Shown here: piece after piece, positions 22,672 through 62,701 of the stretch | How the letters are laid out: each line of letters starts with the position of its first letter | How positions within the stretch are numbered: the first letter of the stretch is position 1 | IMG/VR virus record: IMGVR_UViG_3300050503_000206 | DNA: 64,000 nucleotides | Origin: an uncultured virus (IMG/VR IMGVR_UViG_3300050503_000206) | Taxonomy: Duplodnaviria > Heunggongvirae > Uroviricota > Caudoviricetes | Strand: one strand, 5' to 3' | Made by a program: the position numbers and the translations under genes | The notes under the pieces: model-generated | Database searches by the model: none | What the model saw: the letters and a program-made list of their open reading frames with translations, nothing else | What the model was told of the DNA's origin: nothing

Positions 22672-22750
22672 TGGGCGCACGGGGCGGGGATCGAACCCGC
22701 AGCCATCCGGATGATTAGCCCGGCCGCTCTACCATCTGAGCTTCCCATGC
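22672..22750 (-). tRNA. tRNA-like RNA 2 (9-nt anticodon loop GCUAAUCAU)
   Basis: GCATGGG-AA-GCTC AGATGGTA GAGC-G-GCCGG GCTAATCAT CCGGA-TGGCT-GCGGG TTCGATC CCCGC-CCCGTGC-G-CCCA. Confidence 0.8.
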
Positions 22751-22753
22751 AGT

Positions 22754-37316: not shown

Positions 37317-38091
37317 GCACCACCTTGGGCAGCGGGCAGGCCTGCCATAGTCGCTCCGCGACACGGTCGCACGCGAACGATCGCGATGCGTCGATGGCCC
37401 ACTGCTCGCTCACCGACGAGCAGAGAAACGCCACCGGCGGTTCGGTGTCGAGCGACGCGAAGAAGTCGTTGAACTTGAAGCCGTCGCCAACGAGCTTGTC
37501 CGAGAACGACGCCCACACGACCGGCTTGCCGTACGCGATGGCGGCCACGAGCCCGTGCAAGGTGTTCGTGACGACGACCTCCCACGAGCAGATCGTGTCG
37601 ACGATGGACTCGACGGTGCCCAGCGACGAGACGACGGGGAAGCGATCTCCGAATCGCGCGCGCACGTCGTCGACGTCGATCCACGAGCTCAAGATCCCCA
37701 CACGCGCGCGTAGCTCGACCTTCGGCGTGTAGAAACGCGGCAAGAGCAGGCCCGGATCGCCAAACGCTACCGGGGCATGACCTGCCTCGCGTACCTTCGC
37801 CATCGACAGAGGACCTCGCGTGGCGACGATCCGGAAGACGTCGCTCGGCGGCGCCATCCGGGACGGGTCGAGATCCGATGCGAACGCCGATCCAGCTCCC
37901 CAGACGACGCCGCGGCGGATGCTCCATCCCAGGATGCTGCCCGTCACGAGAAACGGCACCGCCGGAGCTACCGGATCGGCGAAGCTCGGCGACTGTCCCG
38001 TGATCTTCTCGACGAGCCACGGCGCCATCCGATCCCCGAAGTTCTCGGAGACGTGCCAGTAGAGCGAAAGTGGCGGGACAGGGCTCGTCAT
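37309..38091 (-). CDS. Polysaccharide pyruvyl transferase family protein
   Basis: NFGD, GSIL, WGAG, RGPLS, GDPGLL, LHGLVAAIAYG, FKFNDF. Confidence 0.85.
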   Translation of the reverse strand: MTSPVPPLSLYWHVSENFGDRMAPWLVEKITGQSPSFADPVAPAVPFLVTGSILGWSIRRGVVWGAGSAFASDLDPSRMAPPSDVFRIVATRGPLSMAKVREAGHAPVAFGDPGLLLPRFYTPKVELRARVGILSSWIDVDDVRARFGDRFPVVSSLGTVESIVDTICSWEVVVTNTLHGLVAAIAYGKPVVWASFSDKLVGDGFKFNDFFASLDTEPPVAFLCSSVSEQWAIDASRSFACDRVAERLWQACPLPKVVHA

Positions 38092-38174
38092 CGGTCTTTC
38101 TGGAGGACGCGGACGGATCCGTGTCGCTCTCGTACGCGGTCGTGTCGTCACGCCACGACTCGACCGCAATCGCA

Positions 38175-40265: not shown

Positions 40266-41089
40266 GGTCGTTTTCCGATCTTGGTGGCGCGACCCAAGGG
40301 CTCAGCGCGCACGCGTCCGCGTTCCTGCACGTGGGCACGCGGGGCTTCGGCGCGGATCGGATCCTTGGGTGGCGGCGGAACGTGGGGACGGATGGTGCGG
40401 TTGCGAACGTCGACCTGCGGCGGCCTCGGCGTGTTCGACTCGGGCTTCGGGCCACTCCACGCGCAGTGGTGGTCGGCCATGCTGTCGTGGAAATGCCGCG
40501 ACATCCGACCGTGGTGGACGTCGAGCGCCGATCCGACGTCGAGCATGAAGCGGCGCTTCTCGATCGAGATCTTCTGCCAATACTTCAGGGCGATGATGTT
40601 GCTGCACGGGCCGGCGGCGAGCAGGACGTCGCGATCGGCCTTCATGATCTCTGCGACACAGCTGTCCACGTCCCACTGCTTACTGACGCCGTCCTCGGGG
40701 ACACGGATGTCCCCGAACCATGAGCCCACCACGATGGCGCTCGCGAACCGCTCGAGCACTTCTTGGACGCGGTAGAGGTTGGCGTGAAGGAACAAGGTCG
40801 CGAACGTGCGCTGCGGCGTCGGCACGCGGACCGCAGGATGGATCCGAACGCCGGTGCGCAGGCAGCAGGGCGGCGGCAGCCCGACGCACCAGCGGTCGCC
40901 GTTGTGGCGCAGGCTGTCGACGAGGTTGCCGCGTAGCCACGTCGGGCCGGAGACCTTCCATGCGTCGGCGCTCTGGTGCGCGTTGCCGTCGATGAGGGCG
41001 ATCTCGCCGTCCCCGAAGCGCACGAGGCACAGCGGCTCGGTCTGCCCGAGCAGCGCATCGAAGTCGCGGCCGTGGTCTTGCGTGAACAT
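40262..41089 (-). CDS. GT-D-fold (DUF1792-like) glycosyltransferase
   Basis: LVRFGDGE...LAAGP...LDVGSALD. Confidence 0.75.
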   Translation of the reverse strand: MFTQDHGRDFDALLGQTEPLCLVRFGDGEIALIDGNAHQSADAWKVSGPTWLRGNLVDSLRHNGDRWCVGLPPPCCLRTGVRIHPAVRVPTPQRTFATLFLHANLYRVQEVLERFASAIVVGSWFGDIRVPEDGVSKQWDVDSCVAEIMKADRDVLLAAGPCSNIIALKYWQKISIEKRRFMLDVGSALDVHHGRMSRHFHDSMADHHCAWSGPKPESNTPRPPQVDVRNRTIRPHVPPPPKDPIRAEAPRAHVQERGRVRAEPLGRATKIGKRP

Positions 41090-45644: not shown

Positions 45645-46310
45645 GTGTACGCGGTCGTCCCGGCCTACAACGAGGCCCCGAGCGTGGCGGCGGTCGTCGA
45701 GGCCCTGCGGGCGTCCGGGGCCTTTGAGGACGTGGTGGTGGTGGACGACGGGTCGACCGACGACACTGCCGCTCGCGCCGAGGCGGCTGGCGCGGTGGCC
45801 ATCCGCACGCCGCGCAACCTCGGCAAAGGCGGTGCCATGCTCTACGGCACCGAGGCCATCGGCGAGACGAGCACGGACGACCGCGTGGCGTTCTTCGACG
45901 CCGACCTCGTCGGCCTCGAGCCGCGTCACATCCGTCGCATGGTCGACGCGTCCGATCTCGGCTACGACCAGGTCGCCGGCCTGCAGGATCGCGGCGACGT
46001 CGTGAATCTGTTGCAGCTGTGCGGTCCGCTCGTGACCGGGCAACGCGTGCTACGTCGATGGATCCTCGAGGCGCTGCCGCGGACGTGTTGGAGCGGATAC
46101 TGCATCGAGACCGCGATCAACGACGTCGTCGAGCGCGAGCAGGGCACGACGATGCTCGTGCTGCTCGATGGGATCGACACGCGCACGAAGCTCGACAAGG
46201 TCGGTGTGCTCGACGGGATCGCCGGGCAATGGAAGATGATCCGCCAGATCGCCAAGACGCGCGAGGCACTTCGTCTCACCGGAGGCACGTCGTGCACGCT
46301 CGGTTGGTGA
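45645..46310 (+). CDS. GT2 glycosyltransferase (DPM/glucosyl-3-phosphoglycerate synthase-like)
   Basis: VPAYNEA, VVDDGSTD, NLGKGGA, FFDADL, TGQRV. Confidence 0.85.
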   Translation: MYAVVPAYNEAPSVAAVVEALRASGAFEDVVVVDDGSTDDTAARAEAAGAVAIRTPRNLGKGGAMLYGTEAIGETSTDDRVAFFDADLVGLEPRHIRRMVDASDLGYDQVAGLQDRGDVVNLLQLCGPLVTGQRVLRRWILEALPRTCWSGYCIETAINDVVEREQGTTMLVLLDGIDTRTKLDKVGVLDGIAGQWKMIRQIAKTREALRLTGGTSCTLGW

Positions 46311-48715: not shown

Positions 48716-49354
48716 TCACCCCACCGGTTGCGCAGCGCAGCCGCAGGGGTTCTTGCGCCGCATGAACACGGGCGCGACGCCCATGAAGTGGTGGTACCAC
48801 TTCGCGCGCGGACGCCTCGCGTTGGGCTTGGGCAACGCGCATCCGCACGGGTTCTTCTGGCAGCCGCACGACCCGTTGCGCGCGCGCACCGTCGACGGCA
48901 GCAGGATGGAGATGTTCTTGGTCCGTCCTTCGCCCATGCGCGCGTCGTATCGCTTCGCGAGCGAGTACTGCCGTGCCCTCGGCAGGACTCGATCGGCGTG
49001 CGGGAACACGGTGGCCTCCTCGTAGCGGATGTGGGCGCCCAGGAGCGCCGCCATCTGCCAGAAGGCCATCATGAACTGCGGAGATCCGTACGGGGTACGA
49101 CCGAGGTTGTCGAGCGCGGTCCCGATCTGGCGGTGCCCCATCTCGAGCGTGGCGACCACGCGCGCGTCAGGTGCTGAAACGCCGGCCAACGCTTGGTAGA
49201 ACGTCGCTTCCTCGGCGGCGCTGTGCCGACGGATCGCATCGGCGATCCCGGGGTACATGCGGGTCGCCTGTCGTGGATCAGCGCGCACCGCTGCGATCTC
49301 GCGCATCACAGCGTTGTGGTCACGCGTCAGAGCTTGGGTGATCGTCTGTGGCAT
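48716..49354 (-). CDS. Hemerythrin-like protein with NPCGC tail
   Basis: DH, HSAAEEATFY, H, HIRYEEATVFP; CGCQKNPCGC...RRKNPCGC. Confidence 0.8.
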   Translation of the reverse strand: MPQTITQALTRDHNAVMREIAAVRADPRQATRMYPGIADAIRRHSAAEEATFYQALAGVSAPDARVVATLEMGHRQIGTALDNLGRTPYGSPQFMMAFWQMAALLGAHIRYEEATVFPHADRVLPRARQYSLAKRYDARMGEGRTKNISILLPSTVRARNGSCGCQKNPCGCALPKPNARRPRAKWYHHFMGVAPVFMRRKNPCGCAAQPVG

Positions 49355-49366
49355 TCGCTCTCCCTT

Positions 49367-50935
49367 TCAACTGATGCCGAGCGCCCACACCTTGTATGCG
49401 GCTTCGAAGCTGGTCTTCTGAGCCGTCGAGGAAACGAGGTGACCGTCTTGCTCGGTCGGTGCATCGATCCCGCCCCACTGCGGATCGGCGCCGACCATGA
49501 GGAACCGCGGCATGCCGACGTAGTGCAGTCGCGCGTAGACCTTGCGACCTGACGTCACGATGCTCACCCGAGGACGCGGCTCCCAGATCGTCTCGCGGAA
49601 CCGCGGCTCGGCGCCCCAGTCCGCGGTCACCAGGAAGTGGTTCACCGATGGCGTCGGCCAGATCAGCTCGTCGTTGCTGCACGGATCCACGCCAGGGTCG
49701 TTGATCGGATGCGGCTGATCTGCGACTGCCTTGCCCGTGGTGTTCGCGAGTCCGATGACGGCGGAATACTGCCGCTTCCACAACGGCTTCGAGGTGAACT
49801 GCGCCCAGACCAGGCCCGCACCATCCTCGTTGCGCAAGTGCAGCGGGTTGTCGGGAAGGGGATTGTTGGGGTTGAGCAGGCCGTAGATCGCACCGCCGGT
49901 CGGCTGCAAGCACAGACCGAAGCGGATGTTCCACGCCTTGCACTCGCTGAAGTCGGAGATGTCGAAGTCGAAGATGAGGAAGTCGTGCGTCGTCTTGGGT
50001 AGCGGATCTCCGCCGACGAACTGCTGCGCCCAGAAGGCATCGTCGACGTCGATGCCGCTCTGCGATTTCGTGTACGGCACTTCCTGGCAGTGCTTGAGCA
50101 CCGGAGGTGCCGGGGGAACGAAGTGGTACTCGGGAAACGGGAAATCACCGGGCATGACCGGACCGCCGGGCGGCAGGTCGATCGTGCCTTGCGTCGGGCC
50201 GGGCTCGTTGATGTCGGGACCGGGACCTGGCGGCTGCGCGATGCCGGGCTCGCCTTCGTTCTGGTAGTCGGGCAGCAGGATCTCGGGGACGACGCGCTGG
50301 TCGTACGGCGGCATGCCGAGCTGGGCGAGTCGCGTGGCGATCCGTTCGTCGATCTCGTCGACGTTGCCGGTGCCGAGCACGCGTCCTCCGCGATGCTGGA
50401 CTTCACGACCGATCAGAAACGACAGGGCGACGAACAGCTGCTGCAATCGCGGCGTGCCACCGACGGGCGGCCACGTGCAGTCCGGCCAGTACTTCGACAG
50501 GAACTGGGTGACGTTGTAGGTGGGATCCGCGGATCGGTTCTTGGGATCCTTGGTGATGGCTGCGAGCGAAGCGATCGTCTTGGCGAGGTCCTGCGACTGC
50601 GCGCCAGGGCCAGGCACGAAGACGAAGTCCGTGCAGTTGACGTCGACGTAGTAGCCCGGCGGCGTCGCGTCCGTCGGGACGCACGCACCGCTCGAGTCCT
50701 GCTCGAATCCCGGATACCGCGGGCCGAGCTCGCATGCGATGGGCACCGGTTCCCCGGTGCCCTGGGGTGGCTGAGGCAGCTCGTATTTCGGGCCACGGCG
50801 CGATCGGTTGAACCGATACGCGCCGTAACCGACGAGGCCCGCCGCGATCGCGGCGCCTGCCCACGTCGCGACCTGGCGCGACGTGGGGTTTCGGCGGTGA
50901 CGCGAACGACGGCGTTGTTTCCTGCCTCGTGCCAT
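49367..50935 (-). CDS. RRNP membrane-anchored putative virion protein
   Basis: MARGRKQRRRSRHRRNP, TM segment, WPDCTWPP motif. Confidence 0.7.
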   Translation of the reverse strand: MARGRKQRRRSRHRRNPTSRQVATWAGAAIAAGLVGYGAYRFNRSRRGPKYELPQPPQGTGEPVPIACELGPRYPGFEQDSSGACVPTDATPPGYYVDVNCTDFVFVPGPGAQSQDLAKTIASLAAITKDPKNRSADPTYNVTQFLSKYWPDCTWPPVGGTPRLQQLFVALSFLIGREVQHRGGRVLGTGNVDEIDERIATRLAQLGMPPYDQRVVPEILLPDYQNEGEPGIAQPPGPGPDINEPGPTQGTIDLPPGGPVMPGDFPFPEYHFVPPAPPVLKHCQEVPYTKSQSGIDVDDAFWAQQFVGGDPLPKTTHDFLIFDFDISDFSECKAWNIRFGLCLQPTGGAIYGLLNPNNPLPDNPLHLRNEDGAGLVWAQFTSKPLWKRQYSAVIGLANTTGKAVADQPHPINDPGVDPCSNDELIWPTPSVNHFLVTADWGAEPRFRETIWEPRPRVSIVTSGRKVYARLHYVGMPRFLMVGADPQWGGIDAPTEQDGHLVSSTAQKTSFEAAYKVWALGIS

Positions 50936-50939
50936 GGCG

Positions 50940-52421
50940 TCAGAGGTTGACGATCTTCGCCGCGGCGCGCTTCTGCGCCTCGGGGTTCTTCCGCAGGTGC
51001 TCGAGCCGCAGGCGCTCGGCCGGATCCTCGACGCCTGGGTTCATCCAGCGATCGGAGTAGTCCGTCTCCGGCTTGGAGCGCGGCTGGTACTCGCGAGTGA
51101 CGCGCGGTGCCGGGGCATCGTCGTCGGGGTTGCGGCGACGCCGACGGCGACGCGGGTTCTCGATCTTCGGTGCGATGGTCTCGACCTCGTCGGGGTTGCG
51201 GCGACGACGACGACGACGCGGATTCGCTTCGGCGACCTTCGTCTTGGTCTTCGTCTCGACCTCGTCGGGGTTGCGGCGACGCCGACGGCGACGCGGGTTC
51301 TCGGCCTTCGGTGCGACGGTCTCGACGTCGTCCGGATTCCGGCGACGGCGACGACGCTTGCGACGCGGGTTCGTCTCGGCGGCGACCTTCGTCTCGACCT
51401 CGTCGGGATTGCGACGCCGACGCCGACGCTTGCGACGCGGGTTCGTCTCGGCAGCGACCTTCGTCTCCACCTCGTCCGGGTTGCGGCGGCGACGACGACG
51501 CTTGCGGCGCGGGTTCGTCTCGGCGGCGACCTTCGTCTCGACCTCGTCGGGATTGCGACGCCGACGACGACGCTTCCGGCGCGGGTTCGCCTCGGCGACC
51601 TTCGTCTCGACCTCGTCGGGATTGCGACGCCGACGGCGACGCTTGCGACGCGGGTTCGTCTCGGCAGCGACCTTCGTCTCCACCTCGTCCGGGTTGCGGC
51701 GGCGACGACGACGCTTGCGGCGCGGGTTCGTCTCGGCGGCGACCTTCGTCTCGACCTCGTCCGGGTTGCGGCGGCGACGACGACGCTTGCGGCGCGGGTT
51801 CGTCTCGGCGGCGACCTTCGTCTCGACCTCGTCGGGATTGCGACGACGACGCCGACGACGCGGATTCGCGGCCTTCGGCGCGACGGTCTCGATCTCGTCG
51901 GGGTTGCGACGACGACGACGACGCTTGCGGCGCGGGTTCTCGACCGCGGTCTTCGTCTTCGCCTTCACGGGCGCTTCCTCGGCGTTGCGACGACGACGGC
52001 GACGACGGGGGTTCTCCACCTTCGGCTCGACCTCGTCGGGGTTGCGACGGCGACGTCGCTTGCGACGCGGATTCGTCTCGGCGACCTTCGTCTTCGTCTT
52101 CGTCTCGACCTCGTCGGGATTCCGTCGACGACGCCGACGACGACGCGGGTTCTCGACCGGCGCAGCGACCTCATCCGGGTTGCGACGGCGACGACGCTTG
52201 CGACGCGGGTTCTCGACCGCGGTGGTCTTCGCTTTGGCCTTCACCGGTGCATCCTCGGCGTTGCGCCGACGTCGTCGACGACGCGGGTTGTCTTCCGGAT
52301 CCGGGTTCTCCTCGGCGTTGCGACGGCGACGGCGACGCGGATTCGCGACCGGGGCGGCCTCTTCTGCGTTGCGGCGACGCTTGCGACGGCGCCTCGGGTT
52401 CTCTTCTGACGCGCGTGCCAT
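50940..52421 (-). CDS. Protamine-like Arg-rich repeat protein (about 19 NP-R(6-9)-N[PA] blocks)
   Basis: Repeat NPRRKRRRRRRNPDEVETKVAAET; SD AAGGAG; promoter motif at 52483-52492. Confidence 0.8.
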   Translation of the reverse strand: MARASEENPRRRRKRRRNAEEAAPVANPRRRRRRNAEENPDPEDNPRRRRRRRNAEDAPVKAKAKTTAVENPRRKRRRRRNPDEVAAPVENPRRRRRRRRNPDEVETKTKTKVAETNPRRKRRRRRNPDEVEPKVENPRRRRRRRNAEEAPVKAKTKTAVENPRRKRRRRRRNPDEIETVAPKAANPRRRRRRRNPDEVETKVAAETNPRRKRRRRRRNPDEVETKVAAETNPRRKRRRRRRNPDEVETKVAAETNPRRKRRRRRRNPDEVETKVAEANPRRKRRRRRRNPDEVETKVAAETNPRRKRRRRRRNPDEVETKVAAETNPRRKRRRRRRNPDEVETKVAAETNPRRKRRRRRRNPDDVETVAPKAENPRRRRRRRNPDEVETKTKTKVAEANPRRRRRRRNPDEVETIAPKIENPRRRRRRRNPDDDAPAPRVTREYQPRSKPETDYSDRWMNPGVEDPAERLRLEHLRKNPEAQKRAAAKIVNL

Positions 52422-52527
52422 TGTTGGCGTGCTCCTTGGTTCGTGTCGGCGCCGCGCGGCGCCACTTGGCAGGTTCGGCCGGACCCTACCAGCGTCGGGA
52501 CGATCCGGAAACCGGCTGTCAACGTGG

Positions 52528-53535
52528 TCAGGATCCGGCGCCGGAGATCCGGCGCGACAAGGCCCGGGCGCGCACAGAAGTGGCGTCAGCGCGCAGATCC
52601 GGGTTGCGCACCTTGGCCACGCCATGGCCCTGTTTCGGGTTCCGTTGCGCGCCCAACCGCTGCTCGGCGCGGCGGATCGACTGCGCGGCACGGTTGGCGC
52701 TGGCGCGGCCGTAGAACGGGTCGGCGCCTTCGCCCTCTTCGCCAGTGTGCCCGAAGTTGTACCAGACGTCCTCGTGCAGCGACGTCAGGAACTGGCGCGG
52801 CGTGTCCGTGACAGGACCTGCGTCCGCCATCTTCAGGTAGTCGCGCACGCCGTCTGTGATCCCCCAGTCGTCTTCCGATTCCTCGGCTTCGTCGCGCAGC
52901 TGCTCGAGCACCTTGCGCTCGCGCGCCGTGAGATCATGCCCCTTCGGGTTACGACGTCCGCTCAGCGAGTTTCCGTACTCGTCGTAGCCATGCTCCGCCA
53001 GAAGGATTGCAACGTCGTCGTCACCTCTTGCGCCCGCCCAGTCGGTTTCGAGGAGTTCTCGATCCACGTAGTACTCGAGCTGCGCTTCTTCGCCACCGCT
53101 CGCCTTGCCCGTGTACAGGACCATGATGTGGCCCCACATCGGCGGATCGTTCTGATCCTCGACATACCGGAGGCGATAGTTGCCGGTGCGCTTCGTCGCG
53201 CCGTGCTTCGGCGCGTTCGGGTTCGCTGCGGTCGACTCGTGCTGGCGGAACTTCTTGATCGCGTCGGTCTTGCGCTCGCCGGGCGTCTTGCCGTAGCCCG
53301 TGATCACCTTCATGTTGCTGTAGCCCTCGTCGGCGTACCGCACGTAGAACTCCGTGACGGTGCTGCCGCCGTAGCGGCGCCGCTCCTCGGCGGTCGCTTT
53401 GTAGCGATCCTTCGAGGTCGCGATCACCTTGCGCTCGGCCGGGTTGCTCTCGCCCATGAACCGCGGCGCGCCCGGCCGCGACGGGTTCACGACGCGCACG
53501 CGGTAGGTCTTCGGGGTCTTGGAGCGCTTGGACAT
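52528..53535 (-). CDS. NP-punctuated multidomain protein
   Basis: Six NP sites; C-terminal RARALSRRI. Confidence 0.7.
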   Translation of the reverse strand: MSKRSKTPKTYRVRVVNPSRPGAPRFMGESNPAERKVIATSKDRYKATAEERRRYGGSTVTEFYVRYADEGYSNMKVITGYGKTPGERKTDAIKKFRQHESTAANPNAPKHGATKRTGNYRLRYVEDQNDPPMWGHIMVLYTGKASGGEEAQLEYYVDRELLETDWAGARGDDDVAILLAEHGYDEYGNSLSGRRNPKGHDLTARERKVLEQLRDEAEESEDDWGITDGVRDYLKMADAGPVTDTPRQFLTSLHEDVWYNFGHTGEEGEGADPFYGRASANRAAQSIRRAEQRLGAQRNPKQGHGVAKVRNPDLRADATSVRARALSRRISGAGS

Positions 53536-54677
53536 CACCGGCTCCGTGAACGACGCTTGGGCGCGCGCCGCATGTTGGTGTCGTTGTGCCACTTCCGGTG
53601 GCCGGCGTGATCGTCGAGCTTGTAGCGACGGAAGCCGCCGTAGTCGTCGTACTCGCCGACGAGCGCGACTTCGTAGAGCCGGCCGTCGTCGATGACACGG
53701 TCGCCAACCTTGAACTTCGGTGGAGGCTCCTTCGCGTTGACCTTCTTCGGTGGTGCGCCGCGCATCGGCAGCTTCGCCGGCGCGTGCTGGTTCTTCGTCC
53801 GCGGGTTCGCGGCGATCCCCATCTCGTCGCGCATGTACGCCACGGTCGTCTTGGACCAGTACCGGATGCCTGCGCCGAGGTTGTTGTACTCCGCTTCAGC
53901 GTGTGGATCGATCCGGTCGGCACCCATCTTCGCGTAGTGGAGCTCTGCGCCCGCGCGACCGACCCACGATGCCGCGCTGATGATGTGCCGCAGCAGCCGC
54001 TCGACGTCGCCACGCTCGCCTGCGTTCGCGGACTCGACGAGTTCTTCGTTCGCGCGGTCGACCGCGGTCCGGAACGCGCGCGCCGACCGGTTGGGGTCGT
54101 GCGTGTTCTTCACCCGCGGGTTCGTGAGGAACGGAAGCCCCTGCTCGTTGTACTGGGCCTTGAGGTGTCGTCCTTCCGCAACCTCGTTCAGTAGATCGAT
54201 GAGCGTACCCAGTTCGCGCTTCTCAGCGCGCTTACGTGTCTTGCGTCTGTAGCGCTCGAGGTCTGTAATAGCTCCTTCGACGACGGACTGCGGCACTCGG
54301 TTGCCCGCGATCGAGGACGAGCCGAGGGCGTACAGATCCGTGCCTTGGCCGCCGTGCCAGTCCATCACGCGGTAGCCGATCTCCGGATCGACGTAGAGCA
54401 TCGGATCCGCGTCATCCTCGTCGGGGTTGTAGCCACGACGGTTGTACAGGTCGTTCGGTGCCGCCTCGCGTGCGACCGCACGCTGCACGAGTTGCCCGGA
54501 GCGAGAGCCCGTGTCGGGCAGGTGGATCTTGCCGTCCTTCCAGTACGCGGTGCTCGAGCCGCCGAGACCGACGATGTTGAGCCGCGTGCCGTCGGTGTCG
54601 AGCTTGTGGCCGTCCATGGCGCGGCGCTCGGTGAACGCCCGGATCACGGCCTTGTCCTTCTTACCCAGTCGTTCCAT
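53535..54677 (-). CDS. NP-punctuated multidomain protein
   Basis: GYNP, LTNP, AANP between distinct segments; promoter motif at 54701-54710; SD AGGAG. Confidence 0.7.
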   Translation of the reverse strand: MERLGKKDKAVIRAFTERRAMDGHKLDTDGTRLNIVGLGGSSTAYWKDGKIHLPDTGSRSGQLVQRAVAREAAPNDLYNRRGYNPDEDDADPMLYVDPEIGYRVMDWHGGQGTDLYALGSSSIAGNRVPQSVVEGAITDLERYRRKTRKRAEKRELGTLIDLLNEVAEGRHLKAQYNEQGLPFLTNPRVKNTHDPNRSARAFRTAVDRANEELVESANAGERGDVERLLRHIISAASWVGRAGAELHYAKMGADRIDPHAEAEYNNLGAGIRYWSKTTVAYMRDEMGIAANPRTKNQHAPAKLPMRGAPPKKVNAKEPPPKFKVGDRVIDDGRLYEVALVGEYDDYGGFRRYKLDDHAGHRKWHNDTNMRRAPKRRSRSR

Positions 54678-54711
54678 TGTCGTGCTCCTGGCTCGTGCGG
54701 ACCCTACCAGC

Positions 54712-57675
54712 TCACAGCGCGGCGATCCGCTTGGCCGCCATGGCCGCTCGCGGGGCGGGATTCGACCACCGCTGCGGCGCGCGTGAGGGGTTGGTCACGC
54801 TGGTAATCCTTCCGTTCTCGCTCTGGAACATCTTGTTCTCGAGCCACAGTTCTCCCGCCCGCTTCGCGTCCTCGAGCACCAAGGGCGACGCGCTGAGTCG
54901 CTTCACGTTCGAGCCCCAGGTCCAATAGCCGGGTGCACGCGGGATCTCGTTCGGATCGGCGATCTCGTAGAAGGCGACCGTGTACGCCGGCTTCTTTCCG
55001 AACTTCACCAAGCGATACGCGCCGCGTCGGTGCTCGCTCTTCGGATCGAGTCGGATCACTCCGTGACCCCAACCGGTCTCGACGACGTTGCTCTCGTAGA
55101 TCGGATGGTCGGCATGCTCGCCGACCTTCGTCCACGTCAGCGGGTTGCGCTTGCGAGTGACTCCACGCGGGTTGCGCAGCGGATCTGCGATCGCCGTGAG
55201 CGCTTCATCGAGCGAGTCGTACTGGCGACCGAACGGGCGCAGGCGTTCGCCTTCCCAGATCTTGCGAGCCGTATACTTCCCACTGGAGTTCTCTTCGGCG
55301 TCGACGACTCCAGCGACGGCGCCGCTCTTCCAGTAGACGACGAGCGTGTCGGCGTCGCGCTTCTTCTTCACCGGCTTGTAGCTGACTGTTTCTTGGCTGC
55401 CCTGGTACGACGTGCGTGTCTCGACGGGAACGGTGGCGAGTTCGAAGTGCCCATGCTTGGTGAACCTCGTCCCGCGTGGTAGAGCCGGAAACTTGCCCAC
55501 GTTCGCCTTGCGCGGGTTCATCAGCTTCGGGAACTTCCCGAGCAGGTAGTCGTAGTCGTCATTCGCCTCGGCCGCGCTGTCGTAGCCGATCACGTAGACG
55601 AAGCCGTCGGTGTCGACGTGGAAGATCTCCGTGCCGATGAGCGCCATGTATGCGCCCGTGCCCGCGTCCGCGACAGATGCACTCGGCACGAGTGATCCGG
55701 CGCGCAGGGCAGCGTGGCGGCTGCGTGCGATCGGGCCGTCGTACTTCAGCTCGCGGTGCTGCAGGTTGCGGCGACGCGGGTTCGCAGTGTGGCGTGGATG
55801 AGCCATCGCCTCCGCAATGACGATCATTCCCAGTCCGACCCATCGTCCGTTGTCGAGAAGATACGGTTCACGCGCACGCGGACGCACGTCGACGATGCGG
55901 TACTGGATCGGATCTCCTTGGCGCCACCACTTCGGAGTCCCGACGAGTCTGACGATGTCGCCCTTCTGCAGCGGATTCTTCGCTCTCGGATTGCCGAACA
56001 GGTCGGCCTGCTGCACGCCGCGGCGGGTCAGCTTCATGCGTACCGGCACGACCTCCTCGCTCGCAGCGATCTCGTCGTACTTCGCCGACAGCTTGCGACG
56101 GTCGGCGACGGTGGCCACGCAGTTGCCGATGTCTTCGCGGATCTCCTCGACCTCGGCGGGCGTGAACGGCGGACCCTTGGGATTCTCGTCGAAGCCTTCG
56201 AAGTAGTCCTCGATGTCGTATCGAACTTCACGGCGTGCGGCATCCTCGTCGTCCCACGCTGCCCCCTGGTGCTGCAACTCGGCCTCGGCCTCCTCGAGAT
56301 CGCGTTTCAGCGCCGCCGATCCTCCGTGCTTGTCGAAACGACTGCGAGCGTCCGCGAGGAATCCAGCGGCAGCGCGCAGGGCGTCCCATCGCGTCTGCCC
56401 AGCGTCGGGACGCGACAGCAGCGCGTTCGCTCTGCCGATGTCGCGCTTGATGATCGCGACAGGCGTCTCGCGATACGCACCTCGGGGGTTGGTACGCGGC
56501 GTTGCACCGAACGTCTCCGCGTAGTCGTCCAAGTCCTTCAGCAGGTCTCGCTTGGTCCGGTAGTGAGGTCCGACATCGTTGTCCGTGTCCAAGGCGACGA
56601 TCCGCCATAGTCCCGGCTTCCGTTGGCGATAGCCCAGTTCCATGTATCGCGTCGCGTGCGTTTCGTCCGAGGGATTCATGCGTGTCTTGGACATCGGAAA
56701 CTCCTGTCCTGTGGCGAGCTCGTAGGTGAGGCCGACGGACATCGGCACGATGTTCCCACGCTGGTCGCGCGGCGGGTCGGGGTGGTCGGTGAGCCACGAC
56801 ACCCACGCGCGCACGGGCAGCCCCATGGAGTCCGCTGCGGCGGCGCGCCGGTGGCCGTCGGTGATCCTCAACGTGCCGCGCTCGGTCTCGACCACCTGGA
56901 TCGGCGGGTAGCTGTGACCGTCGGCCATCCACTGCGCGTAGCGCTCCATGTCCTCGAGCTTGCCGGACTGGCGCAGCATCTTGGTCGGATCGGACCAGTC
57001 GAACTCGCCGGGCTCGAGGACGCGTGGATCGTCGACGAGTACGAGCTCGTCGATCTCGTGGCCGTACATGCCCCGGAACTCGTCGTCGATCCGCCACGTG
57101 CCCAGCTCGAAGCGCGGGTACTCGGCCTTCTTCGTGCGGCTCGACGCGATGACCGTGTCGCCCTGCACGTACTGCGCGCGGTAGGCCGCGTCGAGATCGG
57201 AGTGGCGGACGTACGCTCGAGGGTCGGTCGGAGGCGTGCCCTGCTTGGGCCAGCCGCGCTTGTTCGGTCGTGGGTTCGCGATCCGCTTCACGCCTCCCTG
57301 CATGCGGCAGTCGACCTGCAGTCCCTTGCCTGGCCAGGCCTGGTCGTAGCAGATCGACACGCCCAGCACGCGCTCGGCGGCCTCGTCGGCATCGTCCTCG
57401 CCGTGGTCTCCGCGCTCGCGCCACGCGATGCAGTGGCCGACCTCGTGGGCGATCAGGGCGGAGCGATGCGCGTCGTCGAGGACCAGCGTCGCAGTGGCGA
57501 ACTCGAAGACGAGCTCGTCGGGGATGCACTGCGCGTAACGCCGCCGGTTCTTCGCGTGCTCGCGCTCGAGCGGCTTGTGCAAGACGATCGAGGCATGGCG
57601 CGGATCGATGCCAGCGGCCGCGAGCGTCTGGCGAACCTCGCCATCGAGTCGCCCGAGCGTGATCGTCTCCGGCAC
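54712..57675 (-). CDS. NP-punctuated polyprotein: N-terminal HExxH zincin, ParB/Srx-like domain, further small domains
   Basis: LIAHEVGH; YPPIQVV...ITDGHRRAAAA; about 12 NP sites; C-terminal NPAPRAAMAAKRIAAL. Confidence 0.75.
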   Translation of the reverse strand: MPETITLGRLDGEVRQTLAAAGIDPRHASIVLHKPLEREHAKNRRRYAQCIPDELVFEFATATLVLDDAHRSALIAHEVGHCIAWRERGDHGEDDADEAAERVLGVSICYDQAWPGKGLQVDCRMQGGVKRIANPRPNKRGWPKQGTPPTDPRAYVRHSDLDAAYRAQYVQGDTVIASSRTKKAEYPRFELGTWRIDDEFRGMYGHEIDELVLVDDPRVLEPGEFDWSDPTKMLRQSGKLEDMERYAQWMADGHSYPPIQVVETERGTLRITDGHRRAAAADSMGLPVRAWVSWLTDHPDPPRDQRGNIVPMSVGLTYELATGQEFPMSKTRMNPSDETHATRYMELGYRQRKPGLWRIVALDTDNDVGPHYRTKRDLLKDLDDYAETFGATPRTNPRGAYRETPVAIIKRDIGRANALLSRPDAGQTRWDALRAAAGFLADARSRFDKHGGSAALKRDLEEAEAELQHQGAAWDDEDAARREVRYDIEDYFEGFDENPKGPPFTPAEVEEIREDIGNCVATVADRRKLSAKYDEIAASEEVVPVRMKLTRRGVQQADLFGNPRAKNPLQKGDIVRLVGTPKWWRQGDPIQYRIVDVRPRAREPYLLDNGRWVGLGMIVIAEAMAHPRHTANPRRRNLQHRELKYDGPIARSRHAALRAGSLVPSASVADAGTGAYMALIGTEIFHVDTDGFVYVIGYDSAAEANDDYDYLLGKFPKLMNPRKANVGKFPALPRGTRFTKHGHFELATVPVETRTSYQGSQETVSYKPVKKKRDADTLVVYWKSGAVAGVVDAEENSSGKYTARKIWEGERLRPFGRQYDSLDEALTAIADPLRNPRGVTRKRNPLTWTKVGEHADHPIYESNVVETGWGHGVIRLDPKSEHRRGAYRLVKFGKKPAYTVAFYEIADPNEIPRAPGYWTWGSNVKRLSASPLVLEDAKRAGELWLENKMFQSENGRITSVTNPSRAPQRWSNPAPRAAMAAKRIAAL

Positions 57676-57676
57676 G

Positions 57677-58003
57677 TCACACCGGCTTCCCTTCGCGCGG
57701 GATCCCGCCGCGTCGAACGATCTCCGCTTCGGCATCCGACAGCGCTAGCATCTCCGTGAGCCGGCCCGAGAGCGTCACGTGCTCCGTGCCGTCCTCGCGC
57801 TGCAGGTGCGGCACGTAGCCCGGGTAGCGGTCCTGGTACGCGGTCGGCATCAGCTCGGTCCAGTAGAGGTAGATCGGAGCGTCCGCAGCCGGTCCACCGA
57901 TCGCGCGGCGCACCTGACCCACGACGATGGCCGCCGCAACGATCCCGAGGGGCACCGCCCACAGCCACGTCGGGATCGAGTCATTGTTGCGGCGTCGCGT
58001 CAT
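57677..58003 (-). CDS. Single-TM protein with RRRN N-terminus
   Basis: MTRRRNNDSIPTWLWAVPLGIVAAAIVVG. Confidence 0.6.
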   Translation of the reverse strand: MTRRRNNDSIPTWLWAVPLGIVAAAIVVGQVRRAIGGPAADAPIYLYWTELMPTAYQDRYPGYVPHLQREDGTEHVTLSGRLTEMLALSDAEAEIVRRGGIPREGKPV

Positions 58004-60381
58004 GCGCAGAGGTTGCGTGCGAGCTTGGTCGCGCGGCTGTGCTTGCACCCGCATGTGGTCGCGCGCGCGGGGTTGCGACGCTTGTCGGGCTTGCGACCGC
58101 CGAGGTAGCCACCGAGCGCGGCCCCGAGCGGTCCGAGGGTGCCGCCGAGGCCACCGCCGATCGCACCGCGCTTCTTCCGATCACGCGGAGCGCCGACGTG
58201 GCCGCCGATCGCACCGCCGGCCATCGAGAGCAGCAGCGACAGCGGCGCAATGACGGCTCCGCCCGCGGTCGCCACGGGGATCGCCCCGAGTGCGACGAAC
58301 AGCGTGCCGACCGTTGCGCCCACCACGCTGCCGAGGAACGCCCCGAGGCCGGCGCCGTTGCGTCGTCGACCGCCGGGGCCGTTGGCGACCCGCGCCGCGT
58401 CGGCGAGCTCGATGGGACGCTCAGCGAAGAACAGACCCACGGGCTTGCCGTCCTCGAGCACGACCCATGCGCCCTGCGGCGGCGTCGGGTTGTTCGCCCG
58501 AGCGCCGCCGAGCGCGACGCGTGCGTCGTTCATGCCGGCCGCCGCGAACGGTCCCATGCGCCCGGTCCACTGGATGCTCTGGCCGGCGACGCCGGCCTCG
58601 AGTCCCTTGCCGTAGGCGCGCAGCGCTGCGACCTGGTCCTTGGGGGACAGCGCGTCGAAGCGTGCGGTCGGGTTCTTGCCCTTCGGGTTCTGCTTCGCGC
58701 CCGGCGGTGCGTACTCGATCTCGTCACGCTGGTTGTTCTCGAAGCTCTTGGCGTACTCGTTGGCGACGTAGCGGCGCGTGACGGAGTCGAACATCTCGTT
58801 CCACTTGCCGCCGAACTCCTTGGTGTAGTCCTTGGCACCGGCATCGACGAGATACATGAATCCGTCGACAGCACGCTCGTGGTTGTACCGACCCTTCGCG
58901 CGGTGCTTCCACAGGTTCTTCACGATCGCGCTCCACTGATTGTGGAGCGATCGGGTGTTGTCGATCCAGAGCTCGAGTTCGGTCGCTGCGTGCTCGTCGA
59001 GCTCGCCCTTGACGCCCTTGGCAGGGTTCTTCATGCCGCGTCTCCTCATCATCTCGTCCACGAGTTCCGTGAGTCGTTCGAAGTCGGCATCGGAGTAGCG
59101 ATCTCCGTCGGGACCGATCGGTTGATTTTCCAGAGCGTCGATGAGCGCATAGATCTCGTCGTCGCTGAGCTCGCTGGTGCTGACATCCGGATTGCGCAGT
59201 GATCCCCATGCCGACTGGGCCGCGCGCTTGTCGGACAGACCGCGCTTCTTCTGCGACTCGTAGACGTGCTGGAGCTGCCGGCACTGCTTCGCCGTGATCT
59301 CCGTGCCGCACGCGATGTGCTTGCCCCGCGGGTTCGTGGCCTTGTCGGACTTGCCGACGCCCACGGTTTCGTGGGTCGCTTCCCATTGCCAGATCGCCGC
59401 TTCGACAGTGCGACGGTCGTCGTCGTTCTCGAGCCACATGCTGCCCGTGTCGAAGTCGAGGTAGCGATCGGGCTTCGTCGCAACGTGCCCGCACCAACGT
59501 CCGATCGTCTTGCCGCCTTGCGCGATCTCGTAGCACTTGTACCAAACGACCCGGCCACGGCCGGCTCCGTGCCCGCGGCTTGTCGCCCATGCGTTCGAGA
59601 TCCGCATCTCGCGGTTGGGATTGCGGTCTGCGGTCGGGTCGAACGACGCCAGACGCAGCGTGCTGAACGGCGCCGCGCCGCCGCCGAAGTACGACTCGCC
59701 GGTCGCGACCAGATCGATGATGATCTCGTTGTCGTCGAGATCTTCGTTGTCGTCGAGGAACGTGTCGAGCGAGCCCGACCACTGCACCCGGCCGTCCTCG
59801 TCGGAGAGCACGACGCGCTGCTTGCGGTACGCCTTCGATCCGCCCTTGTGCAGCGACACGAGCTTCGCCGCGTCGGCGCGAGAGATCGGCTTGCGAGGAT
59901 TCTTCATGGGGCTCCTGGGATTCACCTCGCGCAGCAGCGAGCTGCGGAAGTCGACGAAGCCGCGCTTGGCGAGCCGCTCGATCACGTCCTCGCGCGGCAT
60001 CCGGATCTTGCCGGTCGCGAGGACCTCGTCGAGCGTGCCGGCGGCCTCGACGTCCCCGGACTCGGCGTCGATGAGCTCGACCTCCGTCTCGGTGTCGTAG
60101 ATGAACCCACGTTCGGTCGTGACCTCGCGGTTTTTCCGCCTGTGGACGCGTTGTGGACGGTGTTCGGGGGCCGGATTCGCAGCAATGCGCTGTTCCGCCC
60201 ATTGGCGCGCTTCCGACCAAGATTTGAAATCGGGCGTCGTCTGTGGAGCGCTTGTGAGTCGCGCGCGCCAGCGTCCGGCGGCGTCCTGCCATGCTTCGAC
60301 CGTCCGGCCGCGGGCGCGCGTACGCAGGCCGTGCCCCTTCGGGCTACGGTGCGTCTCGAAGCGGCTCCACGACAGCTCCAT
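58000..60381 (-). CDS. NP-punctuated polyprotein with C-terminal glycine-zipper membrane segment
   Basis: About 11 NP sites; GAGLGAFLGSVVGATVG...GGAIGG; C-terminal RATKLARNL. Confidence 0.75.
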   Translation of the reverse strand: MELSWSRFETHRSPKGHGLRTRARGRTVEAWQDAAGRWRARLTSAPQTTPDFKSWSEARQWAEQRIAANPAPEHRPQRVHRRKNREVTTERGFIYDTETEVELIDAESGDVEAAGTLDEVLATGKIRMPREDVIERLAKRGFVDFRSSLLREVNPRSPMKNPRKPISRADAAKLVSLHKGGSKAYRKQRVVLSDEDGRVQWSGSLDTFLDDNEDLDDNEIIIDLVATGESYFGGGAAPFSTLRLASFDPTADRNPNREMRISNAWATSRGHGAGRGRVVWYKCYEIAQGGKTIGRWCGHVATKPDRYLDFDTGSMWLENDDDRRTVEAAIWQWEATHETVGVGKSDKATNPRGKHIACGTEITAKQCRQLQHVYESQKKRGLSDKRAAQSAWGSLRNPDVSTSELSDDEIYALIDALENQPIGPDGDRYSDADFERLTELVDEMMRRRGMKNPAKGVKGELDEHAATELELWIDNTRSLHNQWSAIVKNLWKHRAKGRYNHERAVDGFMYLVDAGAKDYTKEFGGKWNEMFDSVTRRYVANEYAKSFENNQRDEIEYAPPGAKQNPKGKNPTARFDALSPKDQVAALRAYGKGLEAGVAGQSIQWTGRMGPFAAAGMNDARVALGGARANNPTPPQGAWVVLEDGKPVGLFFAERPIELADAARVANGPGGRRRNGAGLGAFLGSVVGATVGTLFVALGAIPVATAGGAVIAPLSLLLSMAGGAIGGHVGAPRDRKKRGAIGGGLGGTLGPLGAALGGYLGGRKPDKRRNPARATTCGCKHSRATKLARNLCA

Positions 60382-60385
60382 GGGG

Positions 60386-60775
60386 TCAGCCGGCCTCGGC
60401 CGCCTCGGGTTCGGATCCGGCGGGGGATTTCCCGCTGACCTCATCTACAACCTCGACGTCGGGCGCGCGCAGGCCCTTGATCCGGGTCGTCGACTCCGCG
60501 AGCGCGAGCGGCACGACCTTGCGGCCGTTCACCACCCGGATCTCGCGGACCTCGATCGCGGGCGTCGGACGCAGCTTCGCGACCGCCTCGCGCAACGCGA
60601 GCGCGGGGGTTCGGCCCCGGCCGACGACTCCCGCGTGCTCGGTGTGCTCCACGCCGTCTTCGGACTCGAGGTCTCGGAAGGCGGACAGGCGCACCTCGTA
60701 CTCGTCGCGAAAGCGCATGATGTTCACGTGCATCGCGCCGGCCGCGAAGGCCTGATCGAGCAGATCGTCGTCCAT
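60386..60775 (-). CDS. Hypothetical protein
   Basis: TGATG-coupled ORF. Confidence 0.5.
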   Translation of the reverse strand: MDDDLLDQAFAAGAMHVNIMRFRDEYEVRLSAFRDLESEDGVEHTEHAGVVGRGRTPALALREAVAKLRPTPAIEVREIRVVNGRKVVPLALAESTTRIKGLRAPDVEVVDEVSGKSPAGSEPEAAEAG

Positions 60776-61623
60776 CAGCCGACCGTCAGGGCCTTGTTCA
60801 TGAGGGACTGATTCGCGACGGCACCCAGCAGCTGCGCCGTGTTCCAGGCGATCGACGGCGCGTCACCTGCGGTGTACGGCTCGAGTCCGCGGCTGTAGTC
60901 GACCTGCGGCGTGACGATCCCGAGCACGTGCTTGATCGCAGCATCGTGAGCGTCGGGGTCGTCCCAGTTGACGTCCTTGTTCGCGATCTCGTTGAGCATG
61001 CGCTCGTAGACGTCTCGCGCGAACGTCCCCTTGACGTCGGTGACCAGGCGCGCAATCGCTGGCTCGGATCCGCCGCCGGGCAGATCGTTGCGTTGGTCGA
61101 AGGTCGTGCCGTCGGGCATGCGGCCCGACAGCGCGACGGGATCGATGACGCCTCCGCTGGTCGCCCCGAGACTCACGTTCTTGACCGCGCGCGCGGTGTA
61201 CGTGCCGTCATCGTTCTCGAGCAGCACGCGCAAGGTCGGCGCGGCGGTGTAGCCAGCCGGGATCTCGGTGCCGCTCACCGCGAGCTGGACCGGACCGCGC
61301 ACGTCGGCCACGACCTGGGGTGCGTCGGCGAGCGTCGCCCCGGGCACCAGAATGCTCGCGAGCACGGGCCCGGGCGGCATCTTCTTCTGGCCCTTCATGC
61401 GCTGCCAGCCCTTGAAGCCGAGGTAGCCGACGCCGATCGCTGCTGCACTGAGGCCGATGGCGGCCATGGTGCCGAGCATCGTCGGGTTGCGTCGAGCTCG
61501 GCGACGGCCACGGCCGCGACGACGACCGCGACGACGACGCGGGTTCGCTTCGGGGATCGCTGGCTCGGGATTGGAACGGGCGCCCTCGAGGGCGATGCGG
61601 CGGCGGGTCGGTGTCGTGGTCAT
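60775..61623 (-). CDS. RRNP membrane-anchored protein
   Basis: ANPRRRRGRRRGRGRRRARRNP followed by a TM segment; SD AAGGAG. Confidence 0.7.
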   Translation of the reverse strand: MTTTPTRRRIALEGARSNPEPAIPEANPRRRRGRRRGRGRRRARRNPTMLGTMAAIGLSAAAIGVGYLGFKGWQRMKGQKKMPPGPVLASILVPGATLADAPQVVADVRGPVQLAVSGTEIPAGYTAAPTLRVLLENDDGTYTARAVKNVSLGATSGGVIDPVALSGRMPDGTTFDQRNDLPGGGSEPAIARLVTDVKGTFARDVYERMLNEIANKDVNWDDPDAHDAAIKHVLGIVTPQVDYSRGLEPYTAGDAPSIAWNTAQLLGAVANQSLMNKALTVG

Positions 61624-61643
61624 GTTGGGGCTCCTTCGTTGCC

Positions 61644-62360
61644 TCAGTCGAGATCGGAGTGGTCGGCGACCCAGTCGAGCGCGAGCGTGAGTGCTTCGCC
61701 GCGGCTGGGTGCGAGTGCTCTGTCGCCGCTGGTCGTGGACCATTGCCACGCAAGCGGTCCGTTGCCGCCCGAGACTTCGGCGATCTGGATCTGGAACTGC
61801 TCGGGGAAGAAGTCGAGGGTGATCCCGTCGGTCGGCTGCATGTTGCCGATGACGATCTCCGAGTACGCGTTGACGATCGCATCGTGCCGCGTGTCGCCGG
61901 CGCCGGCCATGTCGAGGCTCGGCGCGCGCCATGCCCACGTCGGACCGTTGCGGTAGACGTCGACGACGTGCTGCCCCATCTTCGCGTGCACCGTCGGCGC
62001 TGCGCTGCGGTGTGCGGCCTTCGGCAACGTCACCTTCGCCGCGACGGCCACAGGCACGAGCGCGAGCACGGCCCCCGCTGCGATCGCGCTCGCGGTCCCG
62101 ATCGGGTTCTGCAAGGGGTTGGCCGAGCGGCCCTTGGGCAGGATCGCCCCGAGCACGCCGCCCGTCACGCCGCCGGTCACGCCTGCGACCAGAGCTCGGC
62201 TCCACACGCGATCGGTCGATGCCGCGGCGAAGCTCGAGGCGATGCCGATCGCGCTGCCGACGAGGCCGAGGCCGATCGCGGCCTGCTTGTCGAGTCCCCA
62301 CGGGTTGCGAGGATTGCGACGGCGCCGCCGGCGACGCGGGTTCTGCTGACGTCGTTTCAT
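61644..62360 (-). CDS. RRNP multi-TM protein
   Basis: MKRRQQNPRRRRRRRNPRNP followed by three Gly/Ala-rich TMs. Confidence 0.7.
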   Translation of the reverse strand: MKRRQQNPRRRRRRRNPRNPWGLDKQAAIGLGLVGSAIGIASSFAAASTDRVWSRALVAGVTGGVTGGVLGAILPKGRSANPLQNPIGTASAIAAGAVLALVPVAVAAKVTLPKAAHRSAAPTVHAKMGQHVVDVYRNGPTWAWRAPSLDMAGAGDTRHDAIVNAYSEIVIGNMQPTDGITLDFFPEQFQIQIAEVSGGNGPLAWQWSTTSGDRALAPSRGEALTLALDWVADHSDLD

Positions 62361-62701
62361 CCCTGCACTCCCAGCGCGAGCAGTGTGTCGCGGACTGCCT
62401 GCTTTGCGCCGAGTTCGCTCGCCGTGGCGCCGCCGGCCACAGACACGCCGTTGTGGTCCACGCCCCAGATCCACGACGATCCCTCTTGGCTGATCGTCCA
62501 CGAGTACTCGTTGAGCGTCCCCGAGGTGCCCATGTTCTCGGGGCGCAGGATCTCGTCGATGGCCTTCTTCGCGACGCGATGCAGCGCATACACGCCGGCG
62601 GCGGCGAGCGTCACCGGCACGAGCACGACGCCAGCGACCACGATCGCCACGATCGCGCCGGTGCTGAGGTTCTTCTGGCGTCGTCGTTTCATCGATCTCA
62701 T
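62357..62701 (-). CDS. Single-TM protein with basic N-terminus
   Basis: KRRRQKNLSTGAIVAIVVAGVVLV. Confidence 0.65.
   Translation of the reverse strand: MRSMKRRRQKNLSTGAIVAIVVAGVVLVPVTLAAAGVYALHRVAKKAIDEILRPENMGTSGTLNEYSWTISQEGSSWIWGVDHNGVSVAGGATASELGAKQAVRDTLLALGVQG

Follow-up and report, generated by a model that had tools for sequence, protein, structure and literature searches.

Introduction

In sperm protamines, arginine blocks of ~4-9 residues are separated by short spacers, and the multivalent neutralisation of phosphates by these blocks condenses DNA. The adenovirus core proteins pVII and pre-mu (pX) are arginine-rich as well and are matured by the viral protease, and cutting of the precursor frees a short arginine peptide. 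Charge neutralisation by proteins has otherwise been described for adenoviruses, baculoviruses and sperm, and the DNA of cultured tailed phages is generally regarded as packed with little protein counter-ion, if any. This study describes a gene on the minus strand of a 64,000-nt stretch of DNA from an uncultured virus (IMG/VR record IMGVR_UViG_3300050503_000206; the stretch is hereafter called the window, and all positions refer to it) that encodes a protein of tandem poly-arginine runs and spacers, here termed the poly-arginine repeat protein, or polyR. The reading favoured here, with a probability of roughly 0.45, is that polyR is a multivalent nucleic-acid-binding core polycation that is co-packaged with the genome. 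The gene thereby suggests that some large soil bacterial viruses use protein-based charge neutralisation or genome shielding.

With sperm protamines and protamine-like nuclear basic proteins, polyR shares arginine blocks, short spacers, extreme positive charge and predicted disorder, and by analogy its presumed action would also be multivalent phosphate neutralisation and DNA condensation. It differs from them in being ~10 times longer (493 aa), with arginine in no majority (150/493 residues, 30%; 38% arginine plus lysine; 16% acidic residues), in its mildly acidic spacers of 7-15 aa and blocks bracketed by Asn-Pro (NP), in a predicted folded C-terminal hairpin, and in its origin from a bacterial virus; the two are unrelated in sequence, polyR having been assigned to no family by Pfam. 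The likeness to adenovirus pVII and pre-mu is that of an arginine-rich viral protein, which in the case of polyR is only proposed to sit on the packaged genome. No homology was found with Pfam or PHROGs, the putative joints of polyR are Asn-Pro rather than adenain sites, 19 tandem cassettes stand against one, and the only peptidase near polyR is a mini-zincin rather than a cysteine protease, with no adenain-like gene recognised among the 61 window proteins scanned.

Two further groups of proteins bear on the locus. In FlhB/YscU (at the NPTH site), RsgI and reovirus mu1, which cleave themselves, Asn-Pro is a potential scissile bond, as it would be in polyR; their sites lie in folded turns that catalyse the cleavage (as in FlhB NPTH and RsgI), whereas polyR has 38 NP or Asn-Ala (NA) joints in a chain that is modelled as coil. 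Iyer et al. (2017; PMC5512222) describe polyvalent proteins, which are predicted to be packaged and injected with the DNA, propose that zincin-like peptidases process them, and record that DdrB of phage P1 is processed before packaging. PolyR has the gene block, the C-terminal tail and the NP punctuation in common with such proteins but no detected enzymatic or DNA-binding domain, and hence is no polyvalent protein itself; an arginine-repeat partner of polyvalent proteins was not met in the excerpted parts of that paper.

Results and discussion

The polyR gene and its product

A model reading of the bare sequence (the original prediction) had described the locus as a protamine-like polyprotein with about 19 NP-R(6-9)-N[PA] blocks, and the regular expression NP[RK]{6-9}N[PA] gave exactly 19. 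The basic runs are nine residues long in eight blocks, eight in four, seven in six and six in one, and 10 of the 19 read RRKRRRRR(R). NP or NA flanks every one of the 19 runs, which is invariant in the relatives described below. A hydrophobic-x-x-Asn junction signal was also considered for these joints and was ruled out, position -3 being A, P, K or R. The predicted 72-bp core unit with synonymous variation was recovered too: Tandem Repeats Finder returned a period of 72 on the array, with super-periods of 138, 213, 276 and 285, and across seven 24-codon units all nine variable sites of the NP-R9-NP part were third codon positions. Within the most regular core (positions are collected in Table 1), the spacer DEVETKVAAET occurs in six of eight units and an identical 24-aa unit, NPRRKRRRRRRNPDEVETKVAAET, in five. 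A back-translated degenerate NP-R7-NP-DE pattern had 4 matches against 0.00 expected. Arginine is encoded alternately by CGT (71/150) and CGC (60/150); ten other genes are CGC-dominated.

The product of 60.3 kDa contains 150 arginines, 38 lysines, 57 glutamates and 24 aspartates, which amounts to a net charge of +107, an isoelectric point of 11.9, a charged fraction of 0.55 and a net charge per residue of 0.22. An ESM Atlas entry of 493 aa equals it in every letter. It has neither a membrane segment nor a signal peptide: no 19-residue stretch reached a mean hydropathy of 1.5, which the same script found in seven of eight neighbouring proteins.

All six reading frames are largely open across the array, in the window as in the relatives, and frame openness was consequently rejected as evidence of coding. 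One plus-strand frame reads poly-arginine as well, and because it does so in the same wobble phase, the synonymous variation of the array cannot settle the strand. Both observations are what would be expected if the 72-bp array functioned as DNA (as iterons, or as a site of packaging or recombination) and the open reading frame (ORF) were a by-product of GC-rich low complexity. This explanation is nevertheless barely credible. The strong Shine-Dalgarno sequence that had been predicted, AAGGAG, precedes the minus-strand ATG, and the start, this sequence and the N-terminus are conserved, MA(R/L)A being the common start of four relatives. The 42 unique C-terminal codons compared with the relative L106 differ by 10 synonymous and 3 non-synonymous codon changes, a ratio that shows purifying selection on the C-terminal domain. 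In the neighbouring genes, whose proteins are unrelated and carry the same NP-basic idiom, AAYCC (encoding NP) stands in codon frame 0 in 48 of 57 occurrences, which is a protein-level signal, and a length difference of 213 nt between the window and the relative L110 preserves the reading frame. The gene is also tightly packed between co-oriented genes, with the upstream stop at 52528 and the downstream ATG 4 nt past its own stop. The polyR ORF is a genuine, conserved minus-strand gene. The part of the original prediction that expected a translated ORF was to this extent borne out: judged from its sequence, the locus looks like a translated, conserved gene for an extreme polycation.

The promoter motif that had been assigned to the gene was not confirmed. 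A sigma-70 scan of 50300-53000 returned 0 sites, and the perfect TTGACA hexamer behind the upstream gene stands alone. It lacks a -10 element at a spacing of 16-18 nt, and TAGGGT (52488-52483), the closest hexamer of the TANNNT type, lies at a distance of 28 nt.

Relatives, repeat number and spacer charge

A pattern scan of metagenome contigs returned six loci, one of them spurious (L108); the other five hold orthologues. L110 comes from a contig of 172,068 bp and is 98.9% identical to window positions 58211-45121. L109 holds a complete orthologue of 397 aa, L107 only the N-terminal part with 5-6 blocks, and L106, which is 78% identical, the C-terminal part together with the downstream gene (73% identical in amino acids) and the start of a hemerythrin gene. 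The L111 gene is cut short by the end of its contig and is preceded by an upstream gene related to 52528-53592. Synteny therefore extends to the downstream 522-aa gene and the hemerythrin gene in L106, and to the upstream gene in L111. What stays constant across members with nucleotide identities of 72-78% is NP before and N[P/A] after each run, runs of 6-9 basic residues without a break, a Glu at one or two positions ahead of NP (E or ET) and the C-terminal hairpin domain, while the spacers vary in sequence, charge and length (4-16 residues in full-length members).

Repeat number, which the original prediction had proposed to compare across relatives, could be compared within the limits of assembly: 19 blocks in the window, 16 in L110, where the array is 213 nt (71 codons) shorter owing to a gap in its most regular core, 16 in L109, and 17 in L111 up to the end of its contig. 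When short-read contigs from four runs were compared with 50300-53000, every one of them ended within the most regular part of the array (between ~51150 and 51816) and none spanned it. Assemblies are therefore an unreliable source of repeat numbers, and the 19-versus-16 difference may be an assembly artefact.

The spacers had been described as acidic cassettes that mask the charge of a precursor. In the window they are indeed mildly acidic, with a net charge of -3 in 11 of the 18 and a range of 0 to -5, but the acidic residues counterbalance only 81 of the 188 basic ones (43%). In L109 and L111 the offset is smaller, with spacers of net charge +3 to -3 and three of them basic. Spacer acidity was on these values rejected as a conserved property, and charge masking is no conserved property either, because the spacers of L109 and L111 are weaker and three are basic; the notion of a charge-masked precursor is weakened accordingly.

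Searches beyond these loci returned little. A profile of alignment A1 (four sequences, covering the last repeats and the C-terminus) had one match among 1.84 billion representatives, P0015, an L106-like fragment. The protein was assigned 0 Pfam and 0 PHROG families, and clustered proteins (5.8 billion; size range 271-863 aa) gave no match for the whole of it or for residues 430-493. Megablast of 49000-55000 against GenBank phages (50,697 records) gave no match, tblastn of the C-terminal 63 aa and both large neighbours against phages gave one match of 5% coverage and nothing more, and scanning IMG/VR with the full polyR motif gave nothing. The downstream gene used as a query against viral contigs found no related loci. 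The ESM Atlas held no usable feature match, its structure rows all having TM-scores < 0.3, and a literature search found no description of such a phage protein. As judged by these searches the family is real but rare, and the remark that such a protein is unusual for a prokaryotic virus agrees with the lack of a counterpart in the GenBank phage records, Pfam and PHROGs. PolyR can be assigned to no named family, and its resemblance to protamines and to adenovirus pVII/mu is one of presumed function only.

Predicted structure

An AlphaFold2 (AF2) model was built on A1. The repeats were modelled as coil, with a predicted local distance difference test (pLDDT) score of 50-65, and the ESM Atlas model of the whole protein has a mean pLDDT of 0.41; the repeats are thus predicted to be intrinsically disordered. 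The last 27 residues, in contrast, are modelled as helices 467-478 and 480-491 at a pLDDT of 79-87. Asn479-Pro480 falls exactly between the two helices of this hairpin and Asp466-Pro467 opens the first, which makes NP a helix cap in the only place that is confidently modelled. The NP repeats may fold upon binding a partner or DNA.

A C-terminal tail shared with neighbouring proteins

A tail of the form NP-x(5-12)-[AS][RK][RK][IL][AG][NA][LP]-COOH closes polyR in the window, in L106 and in L109. The same tail ends the products of the window genes starting at 54712, 25782 and 23616, and looser versions end those at 47901, 58000 and 52528. It is found in 4 of 449 six-frame ORFs of the window against 0.27 expected, a ratio to be read with the fact that the regular expression was composed after the tails had been seen; the external homologues P0002, P0003, P0005, P0006, P0007 and P0008, which all end in this tail, are therefore the independent support for it. 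The presence of one tail on proteins that are otherwise unrelated points to a shared partner. PolyR lies in the same co-oriented block as the polyvalent-type proteins of the window, and the tail is common to three window proteins and six external homologues; an address for co-packaging would be the simplest guess at its role.

A role on the packaged genome

From the observed gene, family, architecture, context and shared tail I infer nucleic-acid binding, a location in the virion and a role for the tail. In the manner of protamine arginine blocks, each Arg/Lys run would bind nucleic acid at its phosphate backbone, and the spacers of 7-15 residues would give consecutive runs the reach to follow one duplex or to bridge two, which would enable a single polyR molecule to cross-link and neutralise DNA. 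The C-terminal hairpin and tail may be the common address that directs polyR and the polyvalent proteins to the particle along with the genome. In the simplest view, the NP pairs would cap helices or act as hinges, setting off arginine runs, helices and modules from one another across this virus group. The position of polyR among polyvalent proteins that are predicted to be injected fits a role on the genome.

By simple charge arithmetic, ~320 copies of polyR (19 MDa) would be enough to offset 10% of the charge carried by the ~172-kb DNA (112 MDa). Several points weigh against the co-packaged polycation. Neutralising 30% of the charge would need ~970 copies or 58 MDa, half of the DNA mass, which is implausible for the uncut protein; the packaged role would therefore be partial, or processing would be needed. 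The shared tail could serve any common partner, be it a chaperone, a protease or secretion, and arginine runs bind both DNA and RNA. Of the 61 window proteins scanned, none was recognisable as a capsid, portal or terminase protein, and the packaging of polyvalent proteins is itself a prediction.

The same features could also belong to an effector that acts inside the cell, where polyR would condense the host nucleoid or the viral replication pool, or sequester RNA or ribosomes, perhaps via coacervation, in the service of host takeover or DNA shielding. Such a role is possible, if doubtful: the extreme and blocky charge, the predicted disorder and the absence of a membrane segment would suit it, no structural gene was recognised nearby, and the polyvalent-type neighbours are conflict proteins, but co-linearity and the shared tail tie polyR to proteins that are predicted to travel with the DNA, and nothing points to early expression; none of the 10 sequencing runs listed for the locus was an RNA run. 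As a blocky polyampholyte of natural origin, polyR could also serve studies of nucleic-acid condensation.

Neighbouring genes and the Asn-Pro idiom

The virus (~172 kb, 67% GC) comes from rhizosphere metagenomes, and the GC content of the window is 65-71%. Between 47 and 64 kb all genes lie on the minus strand and all are ORFans; Pfam at expect values (E) up to 5 gave nothing above noise for nine neighbours, and sequence searches of the PDB with the zincin domain described next and three other ORFs gave nothing useful.

One neighbour, the gene at 54712-57735, combines disparate domains. At residues ~23-140 (57316-57669) it encodes a mini-zincin, a domain of ~130 residues with an invariant HEVGH...E..AD (columns of alignment A2), followed by a ParB-like segment (PHROG ParB, E 0.0017). 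AF2 modelled the zincin domain with a pLDDT of 84 and a predicted TM-score of 0.78, and VIA-align placed it closest to abylysin (Z 9.2, root-mean-square deviation 3.1, 99/105 residues) and selecase (Z 9.0), then to SPRTN and M48/M1 peptidases; all 50 of the entries listed were zinc metallopeptidases, at a Foldseek E of only ~0.01. The whole protein has 13 non-self homologues, which are mosaic, with individual members bearing the effector domains ART-PolyVal, GNAT, RelA_SpoT or GGACT. It has the architecture of the polyvalent proteins as given by Iyer et al. (2017; PMC5512222). NP-delimited mosaic proteins of this type are also encoded at 52528-53592, 53535-54677, 25782-27293 and 23616-24842, and a small 'GD.VR...LDNGR' module recurs in three genes of the group.

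NP is the most over-represented dipeptide of the neighbouring proteins (50 against 9.7 expected, 5.2-fold; the next reaches 2.2-fold), with 12 against 1.9 expected in 54712-57735 and 13 against 1.9 in 58000-60444, usually in a basic context. The external homologues contain 95 against 20.2 expected. Module swaps fall precisely at NP: after '...LFGNP', the modules differ between the window protein, P0002, P0003 and P0004, and in P0002 it is a module of the separate window gene 52528-53592 that is fused at this point.

These observations bear on the claim, central to the original prediction, that polyR is a polyprotein precursor. Cut at NP by self-cleavage or by the neighbouring mini-zincin, it would yield ~19 P-R8-9-N peptides that stay on the DNA, and the spacers would be discarded, as with pre-mu. 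Every run in all family members has NP before it and N[P/A] after it, NP is a protein-level signal of the neighbours and marks the swap points of the mosaic homologues, FlhB and RsgI provide well-established cases of self-cleavage at Asn-Pro, and processing would remove the mass problem of packaging; the mass limit on the uncut protein is what keeps the polyprotein idea alive. The mini-zincin gene lies three genes upstream of the polyR gene, and its modelled fold makes it a possible candidate for the processing peptidase, in line with the processing proposed by Iyer et al. and recorded for P1 DdrB (PMC5512222). A complex prediction of the zincin domain with polyR residues 375-493 scored 0.00 and gave no answer. 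Self-cleavage at Asn-Pro, where known, requires a folded turn, whereas the polyR repeats are modelled as coil and NP acts as a helix cap in the hairpin model. A cut at NP would also detach the arm from its anchor in the neighbouring proteins in which an arginine arm and a membrane helix flank NP, and the spacers are not reliably acidic, which leaves the logic of a pro-region weak. Processing of polyR in this manner is consequently unlikely, and the broader scheme, in which NP is the processing code of the virus group and the mini-zincin cuts the polyvalent mosaics into modules and polyR into ~19 genome-bound nona-arginine peptides that are possibly removed after entry, is quite unlikely. NP punctuation would in any case offer a simple sequence handle on whether polyproteins are processed in these viruses and on the addressing of cargo to the particle.

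An arginine arm followed by NP and a membrane-like helix occurs in at least five neighbours (60775-61623, 61644-62360, 63413-63604, 49367-50935 and the C-terminus of 58000-60444), which probably use the same idiom to face nucleic acid. An arginine-arm start, usually with NP, and then a Gly/Ala-rich membrane-like helix can be read in 60775-61623, 61644-62360, 62357-62701, 63413-63604, 57677-58003 and 49367-50935 (all minus strand). The long ORF 60775-62589 is apparently an over-call that spans two arm-type genes in different frames.

The membrane-anchored protein encoded by the downstream, translationally coupled gene raises the alternative of an envelope-active polycation, whose arginine runs would disrupt the outer membrane or the cell wall at lysis or entry. 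Cell-penetrating nona-arginine is similar in length to the polyR runs of 7-9 basic residues, phages have cationic lysis peptides, and an M23 peptidase is encoded elsewhere in the window. I regard this as very improbable: polyR lacks a signal peptide and a membrane segment, the M23 and esterase genes are distant (at 18.8-30.3 kb), and a role in lysis would leave the tail shared with ParB/zincin proteins unexplained.

Arginine-arm proteins of other viruses

Scanning viral contigs with the pattern NPRRxRRRR gave 104 stretches, with 81 loci listed, nearly all of which were short out-of-frame ORFs. Real arginine-arm proteins were those of L051, L078 and L061, the last being the same protein as that of L001. 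Another of these loci, L005, encodes 587 aa with one run. In the proteins of L001, L051 and L078, a long arginine arm interspersed with RNP or NP is followed by hydrophobic helices of the glycine-zipper kind and by a tail that is either acidic or rich in Cys. They share the idiom of NP and arginine runs with polyR but show no sequence similarity beyond it, and they have a hydrophobic core or membrane helix and irregularly placed arginine, whereas polyR is soluble, strictly periodic and hairpin-tailed. The L001 virus (82 kb, with terminal repeats) also encodes a relative of the mini-zincin, L112 (E 7.4e-6), and a ParB-like protein. A PHROG scan of 76 of its proteins gave replication, sugar, integrase, ParB, M23 and 'virion structural protein' matches, and no capsid, portal or terminase was recognised among them.

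Table 1. Positions of the polyR gene, of its parts and of associated genes in the window, and of arginine-arm genes in other viral contigs
Feature	Position	Strand	Remarks
Poly-arginine repeat protein gene	50940..52421	minus	493 codons + stop; ATG 52421; identical ESM Atlas entry; orthologues in L106, L107, L109, L110, L111
Shine-Dalgarno sequence AAGGAG	52432..52437	minus	10 nt 5' of ATG 52421; read from the sequence
Lone TTGACA hexamer	52517..52522	minus	directly after the stop of the upstream gene; no confirmed promoter
Repeat array, residues 8-432	51126..52400	minus	19 blocks NP-[RK]6-9-N[P/A], 18 spacers of 7-15 aa; from regular expression, unit table, Tandem Repeats Finder and repeat families D1-D8
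Most regular core, residues 186-374	51300..51866	minus	eight units of 22-24 aa
Unique C-terminal domain, residues 433-493	50943..51125	minus	alignment A1; kept in L106, L109, L111
Predicted helix-NP-helix hairpin, residues 467-478 and 480-491	50949..51023	minus	AF2 on A1, pLDDT 79-87; terminal tail ...KNPEAQKRAAAKIVNL
Downstream 522-aa protein	49367..50935	minus	arginine arm, RRNP and Ala/Gly-rich hydrophobic segment at its start; L106 orthologue 73% identical
Upstream 354-aa NP-punctuated multi-module protein	52528..53592	minus	C-terminal part kept upstream of the L111 orthologue; one module fused inside P0002
Polyvalent-type 1007-aa protein	54712..57735	minus	N-terminal mini-zincin, ParB-like segment, NP-delimited modules
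Arginine-arm protein of another uncultured virus (IMG/VR)	L115:1466-2881 = L001 2905-4320	minus	
Arginine-arm protein of another uncultured virus (IMG/VR)	L051 2295-3392	minus	
Arginine-arm protein of another uncultured virus (IMG/VR)	L078 2479-4200	plus	

Other features of the window

Next to the polyR operon, a hemerythrin-domain protein (48716-49354, minus strand; E 1e-10) with two 'KNPCGC' motifs is encoded, which is kept downstream of the operon in L106. On the plus strand, a DpdA gene (5020-5880; Pfam E 4e-80) and a QueD-like gene (6161-6538) form a pair that suggests 7-deazaguanine modification of the viral DNA; the best matches of DpdA are in Mycobacterium phages, at ~52% identity (399 of 408 matching records). 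A pair of neighbouring tRNA-Ile genes, each called with anticodon AAT (22595-22751, minus strand), lies beside a PTH2-like peptidyl-tRNA hydrolase gene (22180-22530). A sugar-nucleotide block at 32989-41089 (minus strand) and 45645-46310 (plus strand) comprises a GDP-mannose 4,6-dehydratase, an epimerase, a DegT-type aminotransferase, a pyruvyl transferase-like gene and several glycosyltransferases, and could modify the virion or the host surface. The window also encodes beta-helix and lectin-type proteins with tail-fibre-like PHROG matches, the M23 peptidase and a DNA methylase.

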